Position numbers and translations under genes: made by a program. The notes under the pieces are model-generated. The model was not told the DNA's origin. It worked only from the letters and a program-made list of their open reading frames with translations, and ran no database searches. Source: a virus (lineage: Duplodnaviria > Heunggongvirae > Uroviricota > Caudoviricetes). Taken from it: 42,212 nucleotides of DNA. Numbering within the stretch: position 1 is the first letter of the stretch; the number at the start of each line of letters is the position of its first letter. Of the stretch, positions 2,801 through 40,968 are shown piece by piece. The stretch lies in IMG/VR virus record IMGVR_UViG_2695420595_000014, positions 1 through 42,212 of that record. One strand, 5' to 3'.

Positions 2801-3079
2801 TCATTTTTCCTCTTTTGGTTTATGAATCTGAATGGTCATGCCGCTTTGAGTGGTGACTACAATGACAGAACCAGGCTGAAGACTGTTAAGATTGAATGCT
2901 TCGTAAAACGAATCCAAGGCCAGCGTTTTTTTATTCTTTCGGTTCCACCAACGCCATCCCTTGCTACAGGCTACACTGACAATCCACTGCCCACTCCTGT
3001 AAGCCATATAAAACCAGATGAGCAAAACCTGAAGGAATGCTATCCAGTCAATAATCGTATATTTCGCGAAGGAGTCCAT
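2801..3079 (-). CDS. Small protein with N-terminal hydrophobic helix (92 aa)
   Basis: ATGA overlap with the upstream gene; hydrophobic N-terminus IIDWIAFLQVLLIWFYMAY. Confidence 0.5.
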   Translation of the reverse strand: MDSFAKYTIIDWIAFLQVLLIWFYMAYRSGQWIVSVACSKGWRWWNRKNKKTLALDSFYEAFNLNSLQPGSVIVVTTQSGMTIQIHKPKEEK

Positions 3080-3945
3080 CACTTCACCTCCTGCTGCGGT
3101 GCTGCTGGCATTTCACGCCAGTGCGTAACTGAGTGCGGATCCGGATATTCAGTGCCATCATCCCAGCGATTGCCATTCCACATTGCAGACCACATCTCAC
3201 CGTCTTCATACATGACCATTACCGGAATTAACTTATCCGGCATTCGCTCACTACAGCTTATCCAACCATCCGGAGTTACCGGAACTTGCGGAATGGCTGT
3301 CTGCTCTCGAACGTCATTAGGCGCTATAGGTTCTGCTGCCAACTGACTGGCATATTTGTTAATGGTAACGATAAGCTCTTGCTCAGCCTCATCCAGACAA
3401 TCACCGATACCTCGCCTGTCACCGTCAAAATCATCGAAATCGGCACGAATCTTGGCAACCTTCAGGATTGCGGACAACACTTCACTAGGAATTACCGGAT
3501 AGTTGGTTGACGTTTCCGCGATTTCCCGAAAATTATTGGTTGACGAATTCTTATTTTCCCGAAAGTTTCCGGACTGAAGCATGGCGGCGCGGCAGGCGTT
3601 CCAGCCTCTCACCTCTGCAATAGCGGCAACAGCATCAACCGCGTACATGCTAAGAGGATTAGGCATTGGTTTTTCTTCCGGTACTACTGGAACGGGGGGA
3701 GCGGCGTAGACCTCAATAATTCCATTATCAATAGGCCATTCTCCATCCTTGAGGTAGTCACTTGTGCCGTCAACTTGCTGTTCTGCAATGTGGAATGCAC
3801 CTATTGGTTTTGCTTCCAGCGATGCCAGAGCAATCCGTGCCAGTTCTTCCGCTTCTTCTGCTGGCAGTACAACGTTGCTACCCGGTCCGTATGTTTCGCG
3901 CCACTGCTTGATTGTCAGCAGTCGCTCTTTGGTTATAGTGGTCAT
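3079..3945 (-). CDS. Hypothetical phage early protein (288 aa) with Trp-rich C-terminal domain (DUF551-like)
   Basis: ORF with GAGG SD; C-terminus WISCSERMPD...WNGNRWDDGTEYPDPHSVTHWREMP resembles the DUF551 pattern (from memory). Confidence 0.6.
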   Translation of the reverse strand: MTTITKERLLTIKQWRETYGPGSNVVLPAEEAEELARIALASLEAKPIGAFHIAEQQVDGTSDYLKDGEWPIDNGIIEVYAAPPVPVVPEEKPMPNPLSMYAVDAVAAIAEVRGWNACRAAMLQSGNFRENKNSSTNNFREIAETSTNYPVIPSEVLSAILKVAKIRADFDDFDGDRRGIGDCLDEAEQELIVTINKYASQLAAEPIAPNDVREQTAIPQVPVTPDGWISCSERMPDKLIPVMVMYEDGEMWSAMWNGNRWDDGTEYPDPHSVTHWREMPAAPQQEVK

Positions 3946-6141: not shown

Positions 6142-6690
6142 TTATTTAGCTAACTTTTTCCAGATCGCTGAAACGTATTTGGCTTGGTGGATGGCATCAT
6201 CAAGCGCGTTGTGGCGAGTTCCTTTGAATGGCATATCTCGCTTAGGGTCGAATCCTATTACCTTTCCAAGCTCGACGATTGTTCTTACGTCGCGGTCATT
6301 CCACCACTGCCACGGAACTGGCTGCCCTGTCAGCGAATAACTGTTGCGGAGAATAACGCAGTCAAATGATGCTCCATTCCCCCAAACCTGAACGAATTTG
6401 TGGTTAGCGTTCTTTATGATGAATTCAGATAACCATGAAAGAGCCGTTGAAAGCTCTTGAGTGTTGCTGGTTAGCGATTTTCTGGCTTCTTCACTCTGTT
6501 CCATCCACCATAAAATCGTTGAAGCGTCAGGACGCGCCCGATATCGCATTGATGACTCAAGCGAGATATTTACCGAGAACTCTTCTCCTGTTTCTCCGGT
6601 ATTCGGGTCAAAGAATACCGCCCCAATAGAAATAACTGGCGCGTATGGCCCGTTGCCCATTGTTTCAAGGTCAACCATCAAGTGATTCAT
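6142..6690 (-). CDS. DnaQ-like (DEDD) 3'-5' exonuclease (182 aa)
   Basis: N-terminal MVDLETMG (Exo I motif), later HNALDDA motif; AAGGAC SD. Confidence 0.7.
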   Translation of the reverse strand: MNHLMVDLETMGNGPYAPVISIGAVFFDPNTGETGEEFSVNISLESSMRYRARPDASTILWWMEQSEEARKSLTSNTQELSTALSWLSEFIIKNANHKFVQVWGNGASFDCVILRNSYSLTGQPVPWQWWNDRDVRTIVELGKVIGFDPKRDMPFKGTRHNALDDAIHQAKYVSAIWKKLAK

Positions 6691-6698
6691 GTAAGTCC

Positions 6699-7214
6699 TT
6701 AAATTGCGTGAATAGCGTGACGAGGGAAGGGGAGAGTTACTGGTGCAAAGGGGATATCGTCGTCAAAATCCATAGGTGGTTCGCTGTGATTTCCCTGCTG
6801 CTGAGGTTGCTGTCTTTGTTGCTGACCGTTATTTTGCTGAGGTGAAGACTGTTCATTGCCTCCTTGCTTGCCACCAAGCATTTGCATGGTTCCACCAACG
6901 CCCACGATGACTTCGGTAGTGAACCGATCCTGTCCGCTTTGATCCTGCCATTTTCTTGTCCGCAATTTGCCTTCAAGATAAACCTCAGAGCCTTTTCGCA
7001 GATATTCGCTGGCAATTTCTGCCAGTTTCCCGCTCATTACCACACGGTGCCACTCCGTCTGCTCCTTTTGCTCTCCAGTTTGCTTATCACGCCATTGTTC
7101 TGACGTAGCAACTGTAAGGTTTGCAAATGCCGTTCCTGATGGTGAATATCTGATTTCTGGATCATGCCCAAGGCGACCAATAATGATCACCTTATTTACG
7201 CCTCTGCTTGCCAT
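6699..7214 (-). CDS. ssb: Single-stranded DNA-binding protein with 15-aa extension after the DDDIPF tail
   Basis: OB-fold N-terminus ([16 protein letters not shown]...), Gly/Gln-rich linker, acidic tail DFDDDIPF, then [15 protein letters not shown] before the stop. Confidence 0.85.
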
Positions 7215-7922
7215 TTATGCCGCCTGTTTTAGCTCGTTAACTCTGATGTTCATTACCTGAACGCATTTAGCCTGCGCCTCCTCGTTTCCAGCCATTAATT
7301 GCCAGTCATGCTGATAACGCTCGATGAGTTTTTTCTTGTCAGTTTCTGTCGCTGCATAATCGCTGAAGTCTTTCAGGATTTGTTCGCAGTCAACCGATGG
7401 AGATTTCTGGTTGGTATTTTCTGGTGATGGTTTGTTATCTGATGCTGGTATTGCCCATCCCGGCAGCGATGGAGGGAGCCAGTAAAATCCTGTTCCATCC
7501 TTGAGTTTTGCCCTGTGCCACCCCTGCTTTTTATCGAGAGATGTTTGTGCGAAACCTTCCTCAAGGTTATACAGATACCGACCGATTCCCCACTGAACGG
7601 CAGCGCGCTTCATTGCACCGGAACGACCACCTTTGACGGCTTCTACCTGCGTGTTTTCAGCAGCATCCCATTTGGTTACCCATTCGGAATCAATCTTTAT
7701 TGATATGCCGCATTCAACGCCGCCGTTGTTGGGAATATCGCGGTATTCATTGCGCCATCCTGCTTTGCCGCAAACATCGTCCAGGCGTTTCATGATTGCC
7801 CTGTTCGTGACATAAGCCAGCACCATAGCCCACACCTTGCCATCGCGTGTTTTACCGCTTTGCTGTATTCGCCATTCGATATCTTCGTGGCTGAATGGCT
7901 CATCGAATTTATTCAAATCCAT
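7215..7922 (-). CDS. Single-strand annealing recombinase with Erf-like C-terminal domain (235 aa)
   Basis: C-terminus ...YAATETDKKKLIERYQHDWQL...CVQVMNIRVNELKQ matches the P22 Erf C-terminal region from memory; sits beside ssb as in P22-like recombination modules. Confidence 0.55.
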   Translation of the reverse strand: MDLNKFDEPFSHEDIEWRIQQSGKTRDGKVWAMVLAYVTNRAIMKRLDDVCGKAGWRNEYRDIPNNGGVECGISIKIDSEWVTKWDAAENTQVEAVKGGRSGAMKRAAVQWGIGRYLYNLEEGFAQTSLDKKQGWHRAKLKDGTGFYWLPPSLPGWAIPASDNKPSPENTNQKSPSVDCEQILKDFSDYAATETDKKKLIERYQHDWQLMAGNEEAQAKCVQVMNIRVNELKQAA

Positions 7923-12242: not shown

Positions 12243-12404
12243 ATGACAAAACGTCGTAAGAAATACCAGGAAAAAGAAGAGATTCGACACCCTGATTCAC
12301 CTGAGGGATTAGTGGTAGCCGCAGCAAATAACAGGGCGTTCGCAGAGCGCCTTGTTGGTGTTTACAGACTAGCCAAAGCAGGAGTGAAACATGGGCGTCG
12401 TTAA
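12243..12404 (+). CDS. Small basic hypothetical protein (53 aa), not in the ORF track
   Basis: ATG ORF between cII and the O-like gene, overlapping the O start in another frame. Confidence 0.25.
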   Translation: MTKRRKKYQEKEEIRHPDSPEGLVVAAANNRAFAERLVGVYRLAKAGVKHGRR

Positions 12405-13281
12405 GTTAGCTGATTACAGGCATAACCCTGTACAACATCAGGAGGCATCCAGTATGGGGTATGTCTCTATACACCGCCAGTTTATGGACAGCAGGCTCTA
12501 TAAGGACTCTCAGGCAGTACATCTTTGGCTTCACTTAATCCTCAAGGCTAATCACGAATCTACTGTCGTCAATACGGATATCGGTCCGATAACTGTTGAT
12601 CGCGGTCAGATGATAACTGGACGCCCGTCGCTGGTCAGAGAAACATTCATCCCCGACAACAAAGTTCGGAGCTTATTACGGACTTTTGAGTCGAAAGGGA
12701 TGCTTAATATTTCCTCGATGGGGAAGAAATTTAGCCTGTTTACAATCGTTAAATATGACGATTTTCAGGCAAAAAATTGTCCAACGGTTGTCCAACGGTT
12801 GTCCAACGCAAACACCAGTAATGGCGCGGCTCTCAGCGGAGATTGTCCAACGGTTGTCCAACGGTTGTCCATAAACAATAATATAAATAATATCTCTAAT
12901 ACTGACGTATTAGAGAGTGCCACAGCAGACAAAAAGTCTGACAAGAAAAAACCTTCCGTTAGCTGTCAGGATGTTGTCGATGCTTACCACGAAATCCTTC
13001 CTGAAGCGCCAAGAATCCGCGCACTGAATGACAAGCGTAAAAACCAGATCCGAACGTTCTGGCGCAAAGCCGGAGTGATAACCCGCCAGCTTGACGGGCA
13101 TGGGTTCACGATGCAGGACTGGAGAAATTATTTGAGCTACGTAGGAGAAAATTGCCGATGGATGTTCGAAGAGCGCCCAAACCATCAACGCGGAACTGTC
13201 TGGCACAAAAAGGGATTTGATTTCCTGCTTAACGATAATACCTACCTGAAAGTTCGTGAGGGTGAACACGATGACCGATAA
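12391..13281 (+). CDS. Replication initiator (lambda O-like) with internal origin iterons (296 aa)
   Basis: AGGAG SD; lies immediately before the helicase; contains a TTGTCCAACGG repeat array that translates to CPTVVQRLS repeats. Confidence 0.65.
   Translation: MGVVKLADYRHNPVQHQEASSMGYVSIHRQFMDSRLYKDSQAVHLWLHLILKANHESTVVNTDIGPITVDRGQMITGRPSLVRETFIPDNKVRSLLRTFESKGMLNISSMGKKFSLFTIVKYDDFQAKNCPTVVQRLSNANTSNGAALSGDCPTVVQRLSINNNINNISNTDVLESATADKKSDKKKPSVSCQDVVDAYHEILPEAPRIRALNDKRKNQIRTFWRKAGVITRQLDGHGFTMQDWRNYLSYVGENCRWMFEERPNHQRGTVWHKKGFDFLLNDNTYLKVREGEHDDR
12777..12871. repeat. Origin iterons: six copies of TTGTCCAACGG in two clusters
   Basis: Three tandem copies at 12777..12809 and three (last truncated) at 12843..12871. 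Confidence 0.75.
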
Positions 13282-14707
13282 TTTTTATGCGCCGCCCCAT
13301 AGCATCGAGGCAGAGCAGGCGGTGATTGGTGGATTGCTTCTGGATGATGACAGCAGTGAGCGCGTCCAGAAAGTTCTGGCGATGCTGAAGCCTGATTCAT
13401 TTTACAGCCGACCACACAAAATCCTTTTCGAAGAAATAACCAGAATGCACCGGGAGCAAAAGCCAGTAGATGGCCTGACGCTTTTCGATGAACTGGATCG
13501 CAAATCGTTAACGGTGTCTGTTGGCGGTTTTGCTTATATCGCTGAGATCGCAAAGAACACGCCAAGCGCCGCAAACATCGTTGCCTATGCAATGCAGGTT
13601 CGCGAAACCGCAATGGAACGCTACGCCATCAACCGCATGACTGAAGCGACGGAATTGCTCTATTCCCGCAACGGAATGACTGCAACGCAGAAGTACGAAG
13701 CTATTCAGGCGATTTTCACGCAACTGACAGACCATGCAAAAACCGGATCGCGTCGCGGCCTTCGCTCATTTGGTGAGGTAATGGAAGACTGGGTTAGCGA
13801 CCTTGAGAAGCGATTTGACCCGTCAGGCGAACAACGAGGAATGAGCACAGGGATCCCATCGCTGGACAGGATGCTGTCACCGAAAGGTCTGGTGAAAGGC
13901 TCTCTGTTTGTCATTGGCGCTCGCCCTAAGATGGGGAAAACGACGCTATACAGCCAGATGGCAATCAACTGCGCAGTGCATGAGAAAAAGCCCGCTCTGA
14001 TGTTCAGCCTTGAAATGCCCGGTGACCAGATACTGGAAAAACTGGTAGGACAGAAGTCAGGTGTTAACCCGAATATTTTTTACCTTCCGGCGACAAATGA
14101 CGCTGATGACGGCTATCAGGGTGATTACGATGGTGACTTCAACAGGGCGATCGAAACAGCCAATCGCTTGAGTGAAATCGACATGCTTTACATCGACGAC
14201 ACGCCGGGATTATCTCTGGCTCAAATCGTCAGCGAAAGCCGTCGAATCAAGCGAGAAAAAGGATGTGTTGGCATGATTCTGGTCGATTACCTGACACTAA
14301 TGACCGCTGAGAAGGCCGATCGCAACGACCTTGCTTACGGCATGATCACCAAAGGACTGAAGAACCTTGCCAAAGAGCTTGATTGCGTTGTTGTGCTTCT
14401 GACGCAGCTTAACCGCGCACTGGAAAGCCGAACCAATAAACGCCCACTACCAAGTGACTCACGAGATACAGGGCAGATTGAACAGGATTGCGATTATTGG
14501 GTGGGGATCCATCGTGAAGGTGCTTTTGATGACAGTGTTCCACCTGGTGAAACCGAACTAATCCTTCGTCTCAATCGTCATGGCAATACCGGCACGGTGT
14601 ATTGCATTCAGGCAAATGGCGCTATTTATGACACAGACCAACAGTCTGCTGAAATGCGCCGCCGTGAACGCGAGGAACCGCAGTCCAAGAAGAAAGGAGG
14701 ATTCTGA
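13271..14707 (+). CDS. Replicative DNA helicase, DnaB family (478 aa)
   Basis: DnaB-type N-terminal domain and RecA-like core with Walker A (GARPKMGKT); ATG at 13271 preferred over the GTG at 13256. Confidence 0.85.
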   Translation: MTDNFYAPPHSIEAEQAVIGGLLLDDDSSERVQKVLAMLKPDSFYSRPHKILFEEITRMHREQKPVDGLTLFDELDRKSLTVSVGGFAYIAEIAKNTPSAANIVAYAMQVRETAMERYAINRMTEATELLYSRNGMTATQKYEAIQAIFTQLTDHAKTGSRRGLRSFGEVMEDWVSDLEKRFDPSGEQRGMSTGIPSLDRMLSPKGLVKGSLFVIGARPKMGKTTLYSQMAINCAVHEKKPALMFSLEMPGDQILEKLVGQKSGVNPNIFYLPATNDADDGYQGDYDGDFNRAIETANRLSEIDMLYIDDTPGLSLAQIVSESRRIKREKGCVGMILVDYLTLMTAEKADRNDLAYGMITKGLKNLAKELDCVVVLLTQLNRALESRTNKRPLPSDSRDTGQIEQDCDYWVGIHREGAFDDSVPPGETELILRLNRHGNTGTVYCIQANGAIYDTDQQSAEMRRREREEPQSKKKGGF

Positions 14708-14790
14708 TGACCATCTACATCACTGAGCTAATAACAGGCCTGCTGGTAATCGCAGGCCTTTTTATTTGGGGGAGAGTAAATCGTGGCTGA
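14707..14790 (+). CDS. 27-aa hydrophobic peptide, translationally coupled to the helicase (speculative)
   Basis: ATG overlaps the helicase stop (ATGA); MTIYITELITGLLVIAGLFIWGRVNRG. Confidence 0.25.
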   Translation: MTIYITELITGLLVIAGLFIWGRVNRG

Positions 14791-14989
14791 GTTTATGCTC
14801 GTCGCATTCAAATGCGTTGGCGTTGGATGGATTCTTCTGACGTTTTTTATTGTTCTGCGTAGCTACATTCGTCTTGTGAATGACGGCAAAGACCCATGGT
14901 ATACGTTGTTTGGCGCTGCATTTGTCTGGGTGATTATCGGTGTTATGCCTGTTGTCGTAGCAAAAATGGCGTGGCGTTTTGTGAGTTGA
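14783..14989 (+). CDS. Small two-helix membrane protein (68 aa)
   Basis: GTG start with GGGGGAGAG SD; two hydrophobic segments separated by a NDGKDP turn. Confidence 0.5.
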   Translation: MAEFMLVAFKCVGVGWILLTFFIVLRSYIRLVNDGKDPWYTLFGAAFVWVIIGVMPVVVAKMAWRFVS

Positions 14990-15006
14990 ACTGAGGGTAA
15001 GTATCG

Positions 15007-15270
15007 ATGGACGAATCAAGAAAGCAGTTTGAAGAATGGTTTGAAAATTACACCGGATGTGATCCTAAAAATAAAATATACGCCAATATGGTTGAGATGT
15101 ATTGGCAAGCGTGGCAGGCATCGCGAGCAGCTATCGAGATTGAGCTGCAAAAGCCAAAGAAAGGCCCACTTCCCGGTGATTATCACATTGGCTATGACTC
15201 AGGTGCAGAATCGCAATACGAAAGCGATGTAGAGGCTATCCGCGCCGCTGGAATCAAAGTGAAGGAGTGA
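15007..15270 (+). CDS. Soluble paralog A of a duplicated small-protein family (87 aa)
   Basis: MDESRKQFEEWF...WQAWQASRAAIE...IRAAGIKVKE; 36-nt and 23-nt nucleotide-identical patches shared with the gene at 15728. Confidence 0.6.
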   Translation: MDESRKQFEEWFENYTGCDPKNKIYANMVEMYWQAWQASRAAIEIELQKPKKGPLPGDYHIGYDSGAESQYESDVEAIRAAGIKVKE

Positions 15271-15458
15271 GCATGAGTCGACGAAGTAGCTTTTTGGGGT
15301 TTGTAATATTCCTGTTCTGCACTGGTTACATCGTAATCTGGTCAATTTCGAACATTGACCGTGGCGGGGAATATCTCATTGTAATGTTCTTTCCTTTGTT
15401 TCTTGGGTGGTACGCCGCAAGGTTGCTGGAAGAATGGGGTTACAGGCATAAAAAATAA
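15267..15458 (+). CDS. Small two-helix membrane protein (63 aa)
   Basis: ATGA overlap with the upstream gene; two hydrophobic segments. Confidence 0.5.
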   Translation: MSMSRRSSFLGFVIFLFCTGYIVIWSISNIDRGGEYLIVMFFPLFLGWYAARLLEEWGYRHKK

Positions 15459-15517
15459 AGGAGTGTTCAGTGAAGCAAACCCTTTTTTATTGGATTAAGA
15501 GCGAGTGGTAAGTACCG

Positions 15518-15700
15518 ATGGTAAATGCATTTATTTGTAGTTTATTTCTTGTCGCGATTTTTCATGGATTCCTTCTGATGATGAGTTTTGTTCTCTGGAA
15601 TAATGGATATCGCATATTGGGAGTAGGTTTTGTTTTACGGTTTTCAGTTGTCTGCGCGTTGCTACCGATAATTATGGCGACTATCAAATATTATTGGTAA
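15518..15700 (+). CDS. Small two-helix membrane protein (60 aa)
   Basis: Preceded by the same gtaagtaYcgatgg initiation context as the gene at 15007; two hydrophobic segments. Confidence 0.45.
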   Translation: MVNAFICSLFLVAIFHGFLLMMSFVLWNNGYRILGVGFVLRFSVVCALLPIIMATIKYYW

Positions 15701-15727
15701 CCCAAAAAATCATCGATGGAGAGTGAT

Positions 15728-16057
15728 ATGGACGAATCAAGAAAGCAGTTTGAAGAATGGTTTAAAAACAAATATCACGTTTCAAGTGACGTGATGAAGA
15801 TTATGCACATCAAGGTCGAGATTGCATGGGAGGCATGGCAGGCATCGCGAGCAGCTATTGAACTGGATATCGACTGGCCCGAATCGAATGACGACTTTTG
15901 GAAAGATGGTGAAGAAGGTGCTTATGCGATGGGTTATGAGGATGGGAGAGACAAAACGGTAATTGCAGTAATGAAAGCTATCAGATCCGCTGGAATTAAA
16001 GAGAAGAATTTCGATGAAGCAAATATACATGCTTCGCAACGAAGCAATCAGAAATAA
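15728..16057 (+). CDS. Soluble paralog B of the duplicated small-protein family (about 110 aa)
   Basis: Same N-terminal, central and C-terminal motifs as 15007..15270; GGAGAG SD before MDESRK (the ORF track starts at 15716). Confidence 0.6.
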   Translation: MDESRKQFEEWFKNKYHVSSDVMKIMHIKVEIAWEAWQASRAAIELDIDWPESNDDFWKDGEEGAYAMGYEDGRDKTVIAVMKAIRSAGIKEKNFDEANIHASQRSNQK

Positions 16058-16460
16058 CGCCATAGACGCAATACTCTCACTTCCCATCGACGACAAGTCA
16101 CCCCACGAAGTCCACCTTAAAGAACCCAAACGCAGCAAAGCGCAGAATGACCGTATGTGGCCGATGCTGAACGATGTTTCGCGTCAGGTGCTATGGCATG
16201 GTCAACGGCTGGCACCGGAAGACTGGAAAGACCTGTTCACTGCCCTGTGGCTTAAGACCAAAAAACTGGAGCAACGAAGTGTTCCTGGTATCGACGGTGG
16301 CGTTGTCATGCTTGGCGTGCGTACCAGCAAAATGCGAAAGGCCAGCATGACTGAGCTTATCGAAATCATGTTTTGGTTCGGCTCAGAGCGCAACGTGCGG
16401 TGGAGTGATGACTCCCGGCGAGAGTATGAATGGTCACAACGAAAAGGGAAGGCTGCATGA
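16014..16460 (+). CDS. ninB: NinB (Orf-family recombination protein, 148 aa)
   Basis: ...NDRMWPMLNDVSRQVLWHG...GVRTSKM...ERNVRWSDD aligns with lambda NinB from memory. Confidence 0.75.
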   Translation: MKQIYMLRNEAIRNNAIDAILSLPIDDKSPHEVHLKEPKRSKAQNDRMWPMLNDVSRQVLWHGQRLAPEDWKDLFTALWLKTKKLEQRSVPGIDGGVVMLGVRTSKMRKASMTELIEIMFWFGSERNVRWSDDSRREYEWSQRKGKAA

Positions 16461-16984: not shown

Positions 16985-17157
16985 GGCGACAGCGACGAAG
17001 TTTCACCGACATCATCTGAGAAAACTGCAAATACCTTCCAACGAAACGCTCCAGAAATAAACGCAAGCCAATCCCAAAAGAATCTGACGTAAAAACCTTC
17101 AATTACACAGCTCACCTGTGGGATATCCGGTGGCTAAGATATCGTGCGAGGAAATGA
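16981..17157 (+). pseudogene. ninE: ninE homolog interrupted by an in-frame TGA at codon 13
   Basis: MRRQRRSFTDII-TGA(17017..17019)[39 protein letters not shown]; lambda NinE has Cys at this position (from memory). Confidence 0.6.
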
Positions 17158-17561
17158 CAATGCTTTTAATTCAACCTGGATTTGGCCTTAGCATCAAAAA
17201 ATGGCACATGTTTGGCGAGAAAGAGTCTCAACGAAAAATGGTGCTTATCAAGTTGCCATTTATCAGTATTTGTTGGCTAAACAGGGAGGCAGCAAATTAT
17301 TTGTCTACATGCGCCAGAGCAGCATTTAACGACCCTGAGTGGTTTGTAGAAAACCATCACGCTGTTCGTCAGGCAAAGAGAAAGGCCAAAACGACATACA
17401 TGAAGGCGTATCGAAAAGCATGGAAAGAACACCGCGATCGATACCAACAAGACATGGAAAAGCTTGAATCAGAAAACATGGAATTAAGACGAAAGCTCGG
17501 TGAAGCAAAACGAGACATTGATGCTTACAAGCGACTTTTTAATGGTGAAAGCCATGCTTAG
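17154..17561 (+). CDS. Hypothetical nin-region protein (about 135 aa; ninX position)
   Basis: ORF 17118..17561; ATG at 17154 overlaps the ninE stop; C-terminal coiled-coil-like region. Confidence 0.5.
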
Positions 17562-19855: not shown

Positions 19856-19930
19856 GGGTCAGTCGTATAAAGGTCATTACGGAAGGCTGTTAACCTTCTT
19901 ATCGTGGTTCGAGTCCACGCTGTCCCGCCA
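19856..19930 (+). tRNA. tRNA-like gene, anticodon GUU (Asn) by manual folding, with acceptor and D-stem mismatches
   Basis: 75 nt ending CCA; T-arm cgtgg-ttcgagt-ccacg; 5-bp anticodon stem with loop CUGUUAA; one T-T mismatch in the acceptor stem and one in the D stem. Confidence 0.5.
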
Positions 19931-19935
19931 AATAT

Positions 19936-20011
19936 GCTGGTTTAGCTCCAATGGTAGAGCAGTCGCCTTGTAAGCGAATGGGTAGCGGTTCAAGTCCGTT
20001 AACCAGCACCA
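19936..20011 (+). tRNA. tRNA, anticodon UGU (Thr) by manual folding
   Basis: 76 nt; perfect 7-bp acceptor stem GCTGGTT/AACCAGC, D-arm GCTC/GAGC, anticodon loop CUUGUAA, T-loop TTCAAGT, 3' CCA. Confidence 0.7.
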
Positions 20012-39810: not shown

Positions 39811-40968
39811 TCACTCCACCTTCCCATCAAGCCATTCCGCCCACCACTGCATCATTTCTCTGCGCTTATCTAGATACTGAGCATGGTTGTAAATCCCGCG
39901 CACAGATCCGCCGTTGGCATGTGCAAGTTGCACTTCAATAGCGTCAGCAGGCCATTCGTGCTCGTTCATAATCGTGCTGAATTCATGCCTGAATCCGTGA
40001 CCGCTTTCCAGACCCTCATAGCCGATTTGTTTAATCACAAGTAGCACCGCGTTCTCGCAGATTGGCTTCTTCTTATCGTTGCGTCCGGCAAAAACAAACT
40101 CTGATACTGGTTTGGTGATTGAGCTTAGCGTAGTGAGAAGTTCAACCACCTGGTCTGACATAGGAACCACATGAATTTTGCGTCCCTTCATCACACTGGC
40201 GTCGATAGTGATAATCCTGTTTTCAAAATCGACGTTCTTCCATTGCATGGAACGAAGCTCTTTCGTTCTTAGGGCTGTGTAGCGTAAAACTTTGGTCGCA
40301 ATGAGCGATACGATGCTTCCTGAAAATGTTGCCAGTGCTTTGTTGAATGCCGGGATCTGGTCTGCAGGAAGAAACGGGAAGTTCTTCTTGCGGTATCCTT
40401 TCATGGCGTCTGCAAGGTCAGGTGCCGGGTTATATTTAGCCCTACCAGTGACAATAGCGTAACGGAAAACCTCGCCGCATCTTCTGCGTGCTTTGTTGGC
40501 TCGCTCCATTGCGCCGCGATCTTCAAATCTGCGGATTACTTCCAGCAGTTGCATCGGCTCAATATCCTGAATTTCAAGGCCGCCGATGATAGGTAAAATG
40601 TCGTCATCAAACATTTTTGCAAGTTCAGTTGCATAGCCTACTGACCAGACTTGCTTCTTGTGCTCGTACCATTCCTTGTAAATCGCACTAAAGGAATTGT
40701 TGTTAGACGAAGCCTTTTTCGCTTTTACCGGATCGATGCCAACCGAGATGTCTTTCCTCGCAGTCCATGCTTTATCCCTTGCCTCCTGCAAAGTCATTAG
40801 CGGATATTTTCCTACGGTCAGGATTTTCTCCTTACCGTCAATCTTGTAGCGAAGCTGCCATACCTTTTTCCCTGACACAGGGACATAAAGGTACAGGCCA
40901 TTACCATCGAGTAGGCGGTATGGTTTTTCTTTCGGCTTTGCTGCTTCAATCTGCTTAACGGTGAGCAT
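39811..40968 (-). CDS. intS: Tyrosine integrase, P4-type (about 385 aa)
   Basis: Essentially matches IntS of CPS-53/KplE1 from memory; catalytic-domain R...HxxR...Y; adjacent to argW; start chosen at MLTVKQIEAAKPK. Confidence 0.9.
   Translation of the reverse strand: MLTVKQIEAAKPKEKPYRLLDGNGLYLYVPVSGKKVWQLRYKIDGKEKILTVGKYPLMTLQEARDKAWTARKDISVGIDPVKAKKASSNNNSFSAIYKEWYEHKKQVWSVGYATELAKMFDDDILPIIGGLEIQDIEPMQLLEVIRRFEDRGAMERANKARRRCGEVFRYAIVTGRAKYNPAPDLADAMKGYRKKNFPFLPADQIPAFNKALATFSGSIVSLIATKVLRYTALRTKELRSMQWKNVDFENRIITIDASVMKGRKIHVVPMSDQVVELLTTLSSITKPVSEFVFAGRNDKKKPICENAVLLVIKQIGYEGLESGHGFRHEFSTIMNEHEWPADAIEVQLAHANGGSVRGIYNHAQYLDKRREMMQWWAEWLDGKVE

Follow-up and report, generated by a model that had tools for sequence, protein, structure and literature searches.

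The window analysed here, a stretch of 42,212 nucleotides from a virus of the Caudoviricetes (IMG/VR record IMGVR_UViG_2695420595_000014), is an Escherichia coli prophage of the lambdoid, P22-like type, present in full and integrated at the tRNA-Arg(CCU) gene argW beside yfdC. Between the gene of its DnaB-type replicative helicase and ninB lie the ninA reading frame with the terminator tR2 and five further small open reading frames (ORFs), referred to here as p68, phiA, p61, p60 and phiB (Table 1). All the ORFs which an earlier sequence-only reading of this DNA had listed in the interval have been recovered at the same positions. We consider it likely that the interval represents the variable tR2-to-ninB accessory slot of the prophage, a mosaic built by recombination and occupied by early lytic accessory genes. 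On the right, the flanking DNA matches many E. coli chromosomes at 100% identity. Genes of the prophage specify an integrase, a cI-like repressor and a P22-type tailspike head-binding domain. Its nin region comprises NinB, Dam, NinF, Rha/ANT, YbcO and RusA and is followed by the antiterminator Q.

Table 1. Features of the helicase-to-ninB interval (positions in the window)
Feature	Coordinates	Strand	Remarks
DnaB-type replicative helicase	13256..14707	+	Pfam DnaB_C 3e-60, DnaB 1.4e-30; PHROG 19; upstream boundary
ninA reading frame, 27 aa	14707..14790	+	ATG overlaps the helicase stop; PHROG 5907 E 1.3e-18; carries tR2
tR2 intrinsic terminator (predicted)	14736..14768	+	stem AGGCCTGC, loop tggtaatc, stem GCAGGCCT, then TTTTTATTT
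p68, 68 aa	14783..14989	+	GTG start; PHROG 1165 E 1.7e-38, end-to-end match
Junction/translation-initiation motif GTAAGTATCGATGG, first copy	14997..15010	+	two exact copies in the window
phiA (s87), 87 aa	15007..15270	+	PHROG 343 E 3.2e-30; acidic, soluble
p61, 61 codons (63 aa if GTG at 15267)	15273..15458	+	two predicted helices; AAGGAG 6 nt before ATG
Recombination scar	15459..15517	+	ninB ribosome-binding site + 11 nt (GTGAAGCAAAC, 15470-15480), variant-tR2 3' tail, p60 leader
p60, 60 codons	15518..15700	+	two predicted helices; hydrophobic
phiB (s109; 113 aa from 15716)	15728..16057	+	PHROG 343 E 3.3e-33; 3' end overlaps ninB
ninB/orf recombination mediator	16014..16460	+	Pfam NinB E 4e-48; downstream boundary

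Four of the six ORFs that follow the helicase gene have been assigned to catalogued families, namely PHROG 5907, PHROG 1165 and, for two of them, PHROG 343/PF26207, and for these four the earlier statement that no characterised family could be recognised is out of date. The two soluble proteins phiA and phiB are paralogs, as had been proposed, with an identity of 47% (E 3e-23). They very likely belong to the Pfam family PF26207 (Phage_phiTE_015), the equivalent of PHROG 343, since homologs at 97-100% identity carry precomputed PF26207 matches and some of these are named 'phiTE_015 family protein' in RefSeq.

The slot has been surveyed with four genes serving in turn as the anchor: the soluble gene (95 loci, gathered by similarity to phiB), p68 (80), p61 (61) and p60 (33); individual loci are denoted by L. 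A scan of one genome per species gave 8 loci only, too few for co-occurrence statistics. The content of the slot is combinatorial, with subsets of p68, a 106-aa protein, a DUF7301 protein, one or two phi genes, p61, p60 and a 54-aa protein occurring in more than 30 orders, of which (helicase or ren)-ninA-p68-phi-ninB is the commonest. The order seen in the window occurs 9 times in the 95 loci, a value that reflects a sample drawn by similarity to phiB and is not a population frequency. An IMG/VR contig with this order (L017) is 100% identical to the window in all genes. The five ORFs, 1.2 kb of small genes in all, are inserted into a slot which is empty in lambda and P22, and the earlier view of them as accessory cargo rather than replication machinery is upheld. 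The 106-aa protein has an N-terminal hydrophobic segment and the 54-aa protein is acidic (L097-L104 2174-2494, L097 3046-3210); a further occupant is a 71-aa basic protein which RefSeq assigns to DUF7301 (L002 1591-1806).

The succession of genes within the slot varies considerably. Behind p68, about 63 of the 80 loci (about 79%) have a phi gene, 11 have ninB as the next gene and 7 have some other gene. Genes of the phi family are also found with no adjoining membrane ORF, as in the order ren-ninA-phi-ninB and in Sakai (L006), and p61 stands behind either a phi gene or an unrelated DUF7301 gene. Only p60 shows a constant neighbour, being followed by a phiTE_015 gene in 32/32 assessable loci, with no fewer than four phi alleles and three different upstream contexts among them. 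A fixed module of one membrane partner and one soluble partner, as suggested from the sequence of the window, is not what these loci contain.

The joint between p61 and p60 could be followed by a base-by-base comparison. Loci in which p61 leads into ninB (L003, L004, L010, L188, L189) read ...TAAAGGAGTGTTCAGTGAAGCAAACAATATTCC..., with the GTG as the ninB start, and loci in which a variant tR2 leads into p60 (L003, L084, L094, L249, L252) read ...GGGGCTATTTACACAGTAGCCCTTTTTTATTGGATTAAGAGCGAGGGGTAAGTACCGATG. The window reads ...TAAAGGAGTGTTCAGTGAAGCAAAC and, across the joint, CCTTTTTTATTGGATTAAGAGCGAGTGGTAAGTACCGATG; the repeat of the ninB start at this point was also picked up when the window was compared with itself. 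A 62-nt joint with a few point differences is present in all the 52 loci that have p61 beside p60, and therefore it arose once. The opening 11 nt of ninB run straight into the tail of a variant terminator, and the array therefore consists of a slot A (tR2-p68-phiA-p61-ninB') joined head to tail to a slot B ('tR2 variant-p60-phiB-ninB). The two phi genes are alleles of one gene that have come to lie in tandem, not the outcome of an in-place duplication. The description of the region as duplicated and recombined stands in so far as the junctions attribute the doubled arrangement to recombination; duplication in place gives way to the fusion of two slot contents. We propose that a single illegitimate crossover joined slots A and B and left the 62-nt scar at 15459-15517, the joint at 15470-15490 offering no usable homology and looking illegitimate.

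The borders of the cassettes share short sequences. The initiation context that had been described as reused, GTAAGTAYCGATGG, occurs exactly twice in the window, at 14997 and 15508, where shuffled sequences lead one to expect none by chance. In other loci it stands before p60, and before the soluble gene where that follows p68. GAGGGTAAGTAYCGATGG is found before phi or p60, and AAAGTGAAGGAGTGAGCATG before p61 behind either phi or DUF7301. The reused initiation context belongs among the cassette junction sequences.

Direct repeats connect the two phi genes. The two patches of perfect nucleotide identity that had been pointed out are both real: 36 nt at 15007-15042 recur at 15728-15763 on the + strand within a 41-nt repeat of 98% identity, and 23 nt at 15112-15134 recur at 15836-15858 on the same strand (0 matches in 100 shuffles), close to the approximate positions 15116 and 15834 given before. 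A third repeat of 30 nt at 83% identity lies at 15235/15977. The family alignment contains reciprocal chimeras, one with the front of phiA and the back of phiB (P0007) and one with the opposite arrangement (P0043), and they are encoded on many E. coli contigs. Two loci of the order ninA-p68-phi-ninB (L033, L034) carry a gene that is 100% identical to phiA through the 23-nt patch and about 98% identical to phiB after it. Such loci are precisely what a recombination event joining the repeats at 15112 and 15836 would yield, with the loss of p61 and p60. The proposal that the paralogs are mosaics recombining at shared motifs is borne out by the two chimeras and by the crossover of L033 inside the 23-nt patch.

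As the shortest segments that pair efficiently, De Paepe et al. (2014, PMC3945230) quote 23-27 nt with Red-beta and 31-34 nt with RecA, and they show that exchanges of this kind are driven by phage recombinases of the Rad52-like type. The patches of the window (23 and 36 nt) meet these lengths, and the prophage encodes a Rad52/22 protein, a single-stranded DNA-binding protein (SSB), an exonuclease, NinB and RusA. A Rad52-type recombinase of the phage, or RecA, may thus exchange the halves of the genes at the repeats or delete the intervening 0.72 kb, and repeat-mediated exchange of this kind would give rise to the mosaic proteins of the phi family.

The 27-aa frame at the end of the helicase gene is a case in which the nucleic acid, and not the peptide, appears to be the conserved element. 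Its ATG overlaps the TGA of the helicase gene in the sequence ATGA at 14705-14709. The hairpin of tR2 at 14736-14759, found by a terminator scan and again in the RNA fold, has an 8-bp stem with 6 G-C pairs, an 8-nt loop and a T-run after it. Positions 14706-14776 of the window are identical to lambda 40568-40640, the stretch from the ren stop to the ninB start, at 70/71 nt. Homologous sequence has been annotated as 'ninA' and 'tR2 terminator' in Nil2, as 'ninA' and 'terminator L2; similar to phage lambda' in P22, and as 'homologous to ninA gene' and 'terminator' in 933W; ninA is annotated in HK630 and SE1 as well, and a terminator feature in 434. In lambda, tR2 begins 30 bp past the NinA AUG and ends 16 bp before the stop of that ORF, the NinA start site is active, its translation cuts termination by only about 10% and the maximal termination efficiency is about 0.9 (Li et al. 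2015, PMC4824070). The geometry of the window, with the ATG at 14707 and the hairpin from 14736, agrees with that description.

Over about 240 fetched loci the tR2 hairpin is almost invariant, whichever gene precedes it: a DnaB-type helicase, another helicase with only 31-33% identity to that of the window, or ren. In 20 loci tR2 has been swapped for a different hairpin with a T-run, and the peptide is altered from residue 12 onward. As the peptide changes while the form of a terminator persists, the terminator is what has been conserved. That the ninA peptide looks hydrophobic is a consequence of a T-run placed after a G+C stem. The 27-aa ORF is the ninA/tR2 element already known from lambda and P22, and tR2 is here a predicted terminator which, by analogy with lambda, would be overridden by the phage antiterminator. 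The hydrophobic peptide of the sequence-only reading is accordingly retained as an ORF at the helicase stop and abandoned as a membrane peptide, the near-identity to lambda and the curated annotations marking it primarily as a terminator. An alternative form of tR2, GGGGCTA...TAGCCCC with a T-run, occupies the same position in several loci (L003 1501-1590 of phage Gally, L084, L094, L249, L252); the first 11 codons of ninA are kept in them and the remainder differs, the terminator stem having been replaced as a unit.

The phi proteins belong to a family of small, mostly stand-alone proteins. A profile search of 1.84 billion representatives gave 708 relatives at E <= 0.001, nearly all of them stand-alone and of 80-135 aa. 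A GGAGAG sequence 5 nt before 15728 favours the 109-aa start of phiB, and the net charges of the two phi proteins are -5 and -6. The AlphaFold model of phiA obtained with a deep alignment (pLDDT 92.9, pTM 0.72) has an alpha-alpha-beta-alpha-beta topology made up of helix 2-16, helix 23-42, strand 44-46, helix 58-80 and strand 84-86. A sequence search of the PDB with both paralogs found nothing, and a Foldseek search of the PDB with a first phi model from a shallow alignment (pLDDT 67.7) gave no match; the family has no solved structural relative in the PDB. In BFVD the fold search matched uncharacterised phage proteins and nothing else. About 300 phage records contain a member of the family, most of them records of lambdoid or P22-like phages of Salmonella, Escherichia and Klebsiella. 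It is also found in the Salmonella phages Seszw and VSt472, with structural matches in Pseudomonas (vB_PaeM_LCK69) and Aeromonas phages, and several of Seszw, VSt472 and vB_PaeM_LCK69 we take to be of virulent types. The literature search found no paper on phiTE_015, DUF7301, PHROG 343 or PF26207.

The N-terminal helical hairpin of the family (MxxSRxxFExW ... AWQASR) is also fused to other C-terminal parts such as DUF551, and appears to act as a portable module. Among one set of relatives (P0127, P0132, P0164, P0162, P0259, P0254) some carry a zinc-ribbon-like N-terminal extension of 36 residues with a CxxC...CDC pattern, in one of them two copies of the N-terminal hairpin are joined to DUF551, and another ends in a cysteine-rich C-terminus. 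The fusions to DUF551 and to the zinc-ribbon-like extension were considered as a clue to function and set aside, the partners themselves having no known function. A third copy of the family was searched for in the window, including in the DUF551 protein at 3079-3945, and none was found. With its 3' tail phiB extends 44 nt into ninB (16014-16057), in another frame. The alleles of the two genes co-vary, phiB alleles of >=97% identity being accompanied by ninB at 94-100% and a phi allele of 68% by a ninB only 34% identical.

Of the hydrophobic ORFs, p68 is the one with a clear signature of a protein gene. Its GTG start is served by GGGGGAGAG, the ribosome-binding site which ninB uses in lambda. 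Two allele groups with 51-56% amino acid identity are both exactly 68 codons long and conserve the loop RLVxxGKD and the C-terminus. Between the groups dN/dS is 0.30-0.36 at a dS of about 1.0-1.1, and p68 is therefore a real gene under purifying selection. Two hydrophobic segments had been noted in each of the ORFs of 60-68 aa, and 19-residue Kyte-Doolittle windows confirm them with means of 1.66-2.51 and a short polar loop between; in p68 they span residues 7-25 and 42-60. The membrane-helix calls for p68, p61 and p60 come from Kyte-Doolittle hydropathy only, topology and insertion being predicted. On this basis p68 is predicted to be a true inner-membrane hairpin protein, and an inner-membrane accessory protein is our best guess for it. 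Weak Pfam matches of the membrane ORFs (T4SS_pilin, Acyl_transf_3, QcrA_N) lie far under the cut-offs and have been ascribed to hydrophobic composition. A distant homology of p68 and p60 was also dropped, the uncorrected BLAST E value of 6e-4 rising to 20 after composition correction. In six related loci the p68 allele has an in-frame stop at codon 15 (VGV*WILL), and in some prophages p68 would be a pseudogene or would start further downstream.

The five ORFs are all oriented in the pR direction and lie directly behind tR2. No promoter-like site was found on the + strand between 13000 and 17500 by a crude sigma-70 consensus scan, which is a weak negative. From this position and from the scan, delayed-early expression is to be expected: the five ORFs would be made only when an antiterminator carries RNA polymerase through tR2. 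They would thus be expressed in lytic growth or in a fresh infection and be silent in a repressed lysogen, which speaks against classical superinfection exclusion by the prophage, of the Rex, SieA/SieB or HK97 gp15 type. The nin region is nonessential, and terminators are situated ahead of Q/gene 23 (PMC8022706, PMC11016777). The occurrence of the phi family in phages that we presume to be virulent would, if so, fit a role in the lytic cycle.

Whether p61 and p60 are genes is less clear, and an alternative that we hold possible, although doubtful, is that they are chance hydrophobic frames in T-rich spacer or leader DNA which travel with the neighbouring phi and ninB cassettes; the functional set would then be p68 and the two phi genes only, together with ninA/tR2. 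Neither has a family match in Pfam, PHROG, NCBIfam or PADLOC. Among 5.8 billion proteins there is no homolog beyond 80% identity, p60 being represented by only three clusters (98, 88, 80% identity), and in translated searches of 50,697 phage records p61 was met in four and p60 in one. Both have mostly been skipped by RefSeq/GenBank annotators. The 17 variable sites of p61 are spread flatly over the codon positions [6,6,5], as are those of p60 [7,8,11]. With 10-16 substitutions, p60 has a dN/dS of 0.56-0.86, compatible with a neutral simulation in which the frame remains open 55% of the time and amino acid changes are as many as observed. No excess of synonymous change was seen for either, the variation being too small for a firm negative. 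Against chance frames stands the fact that every collected copy is intact and free of indels (p61 119/119, p60 84/84). The consensus AAGGAG site of p61 is kept behind two unrelated upstream genes, and the start and stop positions of p60 are kept in three upstream contexts, with the stop changing from TAA to TGA in place. The hydropathy profile of either frame also outlines two helices cleanly, positive charges lie at the ends, and the operon is otherwise tightly packed. As the substitution pattern looks neutral, the status of p61 and p60 as protein genes is plausible but unproven, and they may be young ORFs, translated or not. Two of the three membrane proteins described earlier are accordingly not shown to be protein-coding by their substitution pattern. 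Stretches with p61 and p60 conserved at 98-100% and carrying no CDS annotation are present at L001 2225-2649, L002 1817-2241, L007 1788-2212 and L003 1588-1767 and 2109-2291.

As regards function, the phi proteins are pictured as small acidic cytoplasmic alpha/beta proteins that most likely bind another protein, and the region as encoding dispensable accessory proteins that would act early in lytic development; this is the weakest step of the explanation. The earlier suggestion was a different one, that of duplicated two-component modules in which a small membrane protein and a soluble partner form a superinfection-exclusion, abortive-infection or toxin/antitoxin system. Exclusion systems commonly employ small membrane proteins as effectors, and the constancy with which p60 precedes a phi gene of whatever allele, together with the frequent succession of p68 and phi, counts for such modules. 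We nevertheless regard them as quite improbable. PADLOC-DB v2 gave 0 families at E <= 1 for the six proteins, and no defence, toxin or exclusion family was matched in Pfam or NCBIfam. p68 occurs without phi and phi without a membrane ORF, p61 may follow DUF7301 in place of phi, and of the obligate pairing that marks toxin-antitoxin systems only p60-then-phi is constant. That linkage is itself explicable by crossovers inside the conserved 36-nt 5' patch of phi, and p60 and p61 carry no sign of selection as proteins. Genes behind tR2 with no promoter-like site on their strand are not expected to be expressed in the lysogen, and the phi family extends to phages which we assume to be virulent. The shape of a defence, toxin or exclusion system has gained nothing positive beyond adjacency.

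The phiTE_015 proteins, and possibly p68, might on the other hand be early counter-defence or host-takeover factors, with the mosaic diversity as the trace of an arms race. Lambda Ren, which protects against Rex exclusion, would be their analogue in position and timing, and its gene occupies the same slot, just before or after tR2. The small size and acidity of the phi proteins, their predicted early expression, their presence in temperate and presumably virulent phages, and their extreme allelic diversity, with a conserved N-terminal hairpin and swappable C-terminal halves, all agree with it. This evidence is purely circumstantial: the literature search found no family member with a tested function, fold searches found no structural similarity to a known inhibitor, and mosaicism is typical of the entire nin region whatever the function of its genes. 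We hold a counter-defence role to be unlikely. A still smaller chance is given to a real two-part system of early infection, in which an inner-membrane hairpin protein and a small acidic cytoplasmic protein act together, for instance in blocking a competing phage or a host defence. It is entertained because p60 and phi are constantly, and p68 and phi frequently, adjacent, and if it were true the shuffling of phi domains would retarget the system. Accessory genes of early lytic development in a mosaic slot remain the reading that we prefer, and several points weigh against it. The role of an early lytic accessory binder is drawn from position, size, charge and distribution only, and the dependence on antitermination is carried over from lambda and P22. 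A crude consensus scan could miss a weak or alternative promoter. The scar displays the order of the sequences and not the pathway of recombination, and the successions p60-phi and p68-phi, which the preferred reading takes to be incidental, are compatible with functional coupling.

Some other features of the window have been recorded. The leftward early operon at 6142-7922 on the - strand encodes the Rad52/22-family annealing protein (7215-7922), the SSB and a Rv2179c-like 3'-5' exonuclease. Within a 296-aa ORF (12391-13281) that lies at the position of a replication initiator and has no Pfam match, the region 12765-12882 contains two clusters of three tandem 11-nt repeats each (TTGTCCAACGG), 66 nt apart, which encode the repeated peptide CPTVVQRLS; these repeats look like origin iterons. 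An ORF of 147 aa at 17118-17561, in the nin region between Dam and NinF, also has no Pfam match. Phage-borne tRNA genes for Asn(GTT) and Thr(TGT) are situated at 19856-20011 between the Q antiterminator gene and the lysis genes. An Rfam scan of the whole window gave three tRNAs only, none of them within the tR2-ninB region.

Much of what lies at the locus is already known, namely ninA/tR2, the catalogued family of phiA and phiB and the catalogued PHROG of p68, and p61 and p60 are ORFs of narrow distribution that have mostly gone unannotated. Many mosaic states recur in the lambdoid nin region, and the whole arrangement is one of them; with families that are already catalogued it opens no new kind of biology. 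Its value is that of a clean example of how lambdoid accessory genes are assembled, in which two slots have been fused by a single illegitimate event whose scar can still be read, and tandem paralogs recombine at patches of 23-36 nt to give chimeras and pop-out deletions, both found in natural genomes. The analysis also corrects a likely annotation trap, the hydrophobic peptide being a terminator, and draws attention to two recurring hydrophobic ORFs which are passed over by most annotation pipelines.

In comparison with known systems, the closest likeness is that to tR2 of lambda and P22, with which the window shares the site directly after the last replication gene or ren, the ATGA overlap and the hairpin 30 nt past the AUG; with lambda it also shares GGGGGAGAG as the ribosome-binding site of the next gene. 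The ORF ends in ...GRVNRG in the window and the lambda frame in ...GRGKS, and whereas ninB follows ninA/tR2 directly in lambda and P22, p68 and four further ORFs intervene here. p68 agrees in length and position with the 68-aa membrane protein of PHROG 1165 that is found after ninA in HK633, mEp213, HK630 and many prophages, with no notable difference. phiA and phiB share with PF26207/PHROG 343, members of which are described as 'similar to P22 EaD' or 'Sf6 gene 48' in some records, the motifs MxxSRxxFExW ... AWQASRxAIE ... AIRAAGIKVK. The window differs in having two tandem copies where most loci have one, and in the 16-residue tail of phiB that overlaps ninB. Lambda Ren, lambda Rex and P22 SieA/SieB are likewise small genes, nonessential and located at or close to this place in the genome, and some exclusion effectors are small membrane proteins; the genes of the window differ from them in lacking sequence or profile similarity, a lysogen promoter (none was found) and a fixed gene pairing. 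The mosaic modules of lambdoid phages, attributed to relaxed homologous recombination (Martinsohn 2008, PMC2327257; De Paepe 2014, PMC3945230), have in common with this locus short patches of perfect identity (23-36 nt here) flanking divergent segments, natural recombinants and a Rad52-type recombinase encoded by the same phage. The window departs from them in that its exchange points lie inside a gene, where they shuffle the halves of a protein, and in that one joint (15470-15490) looks illegitimate.

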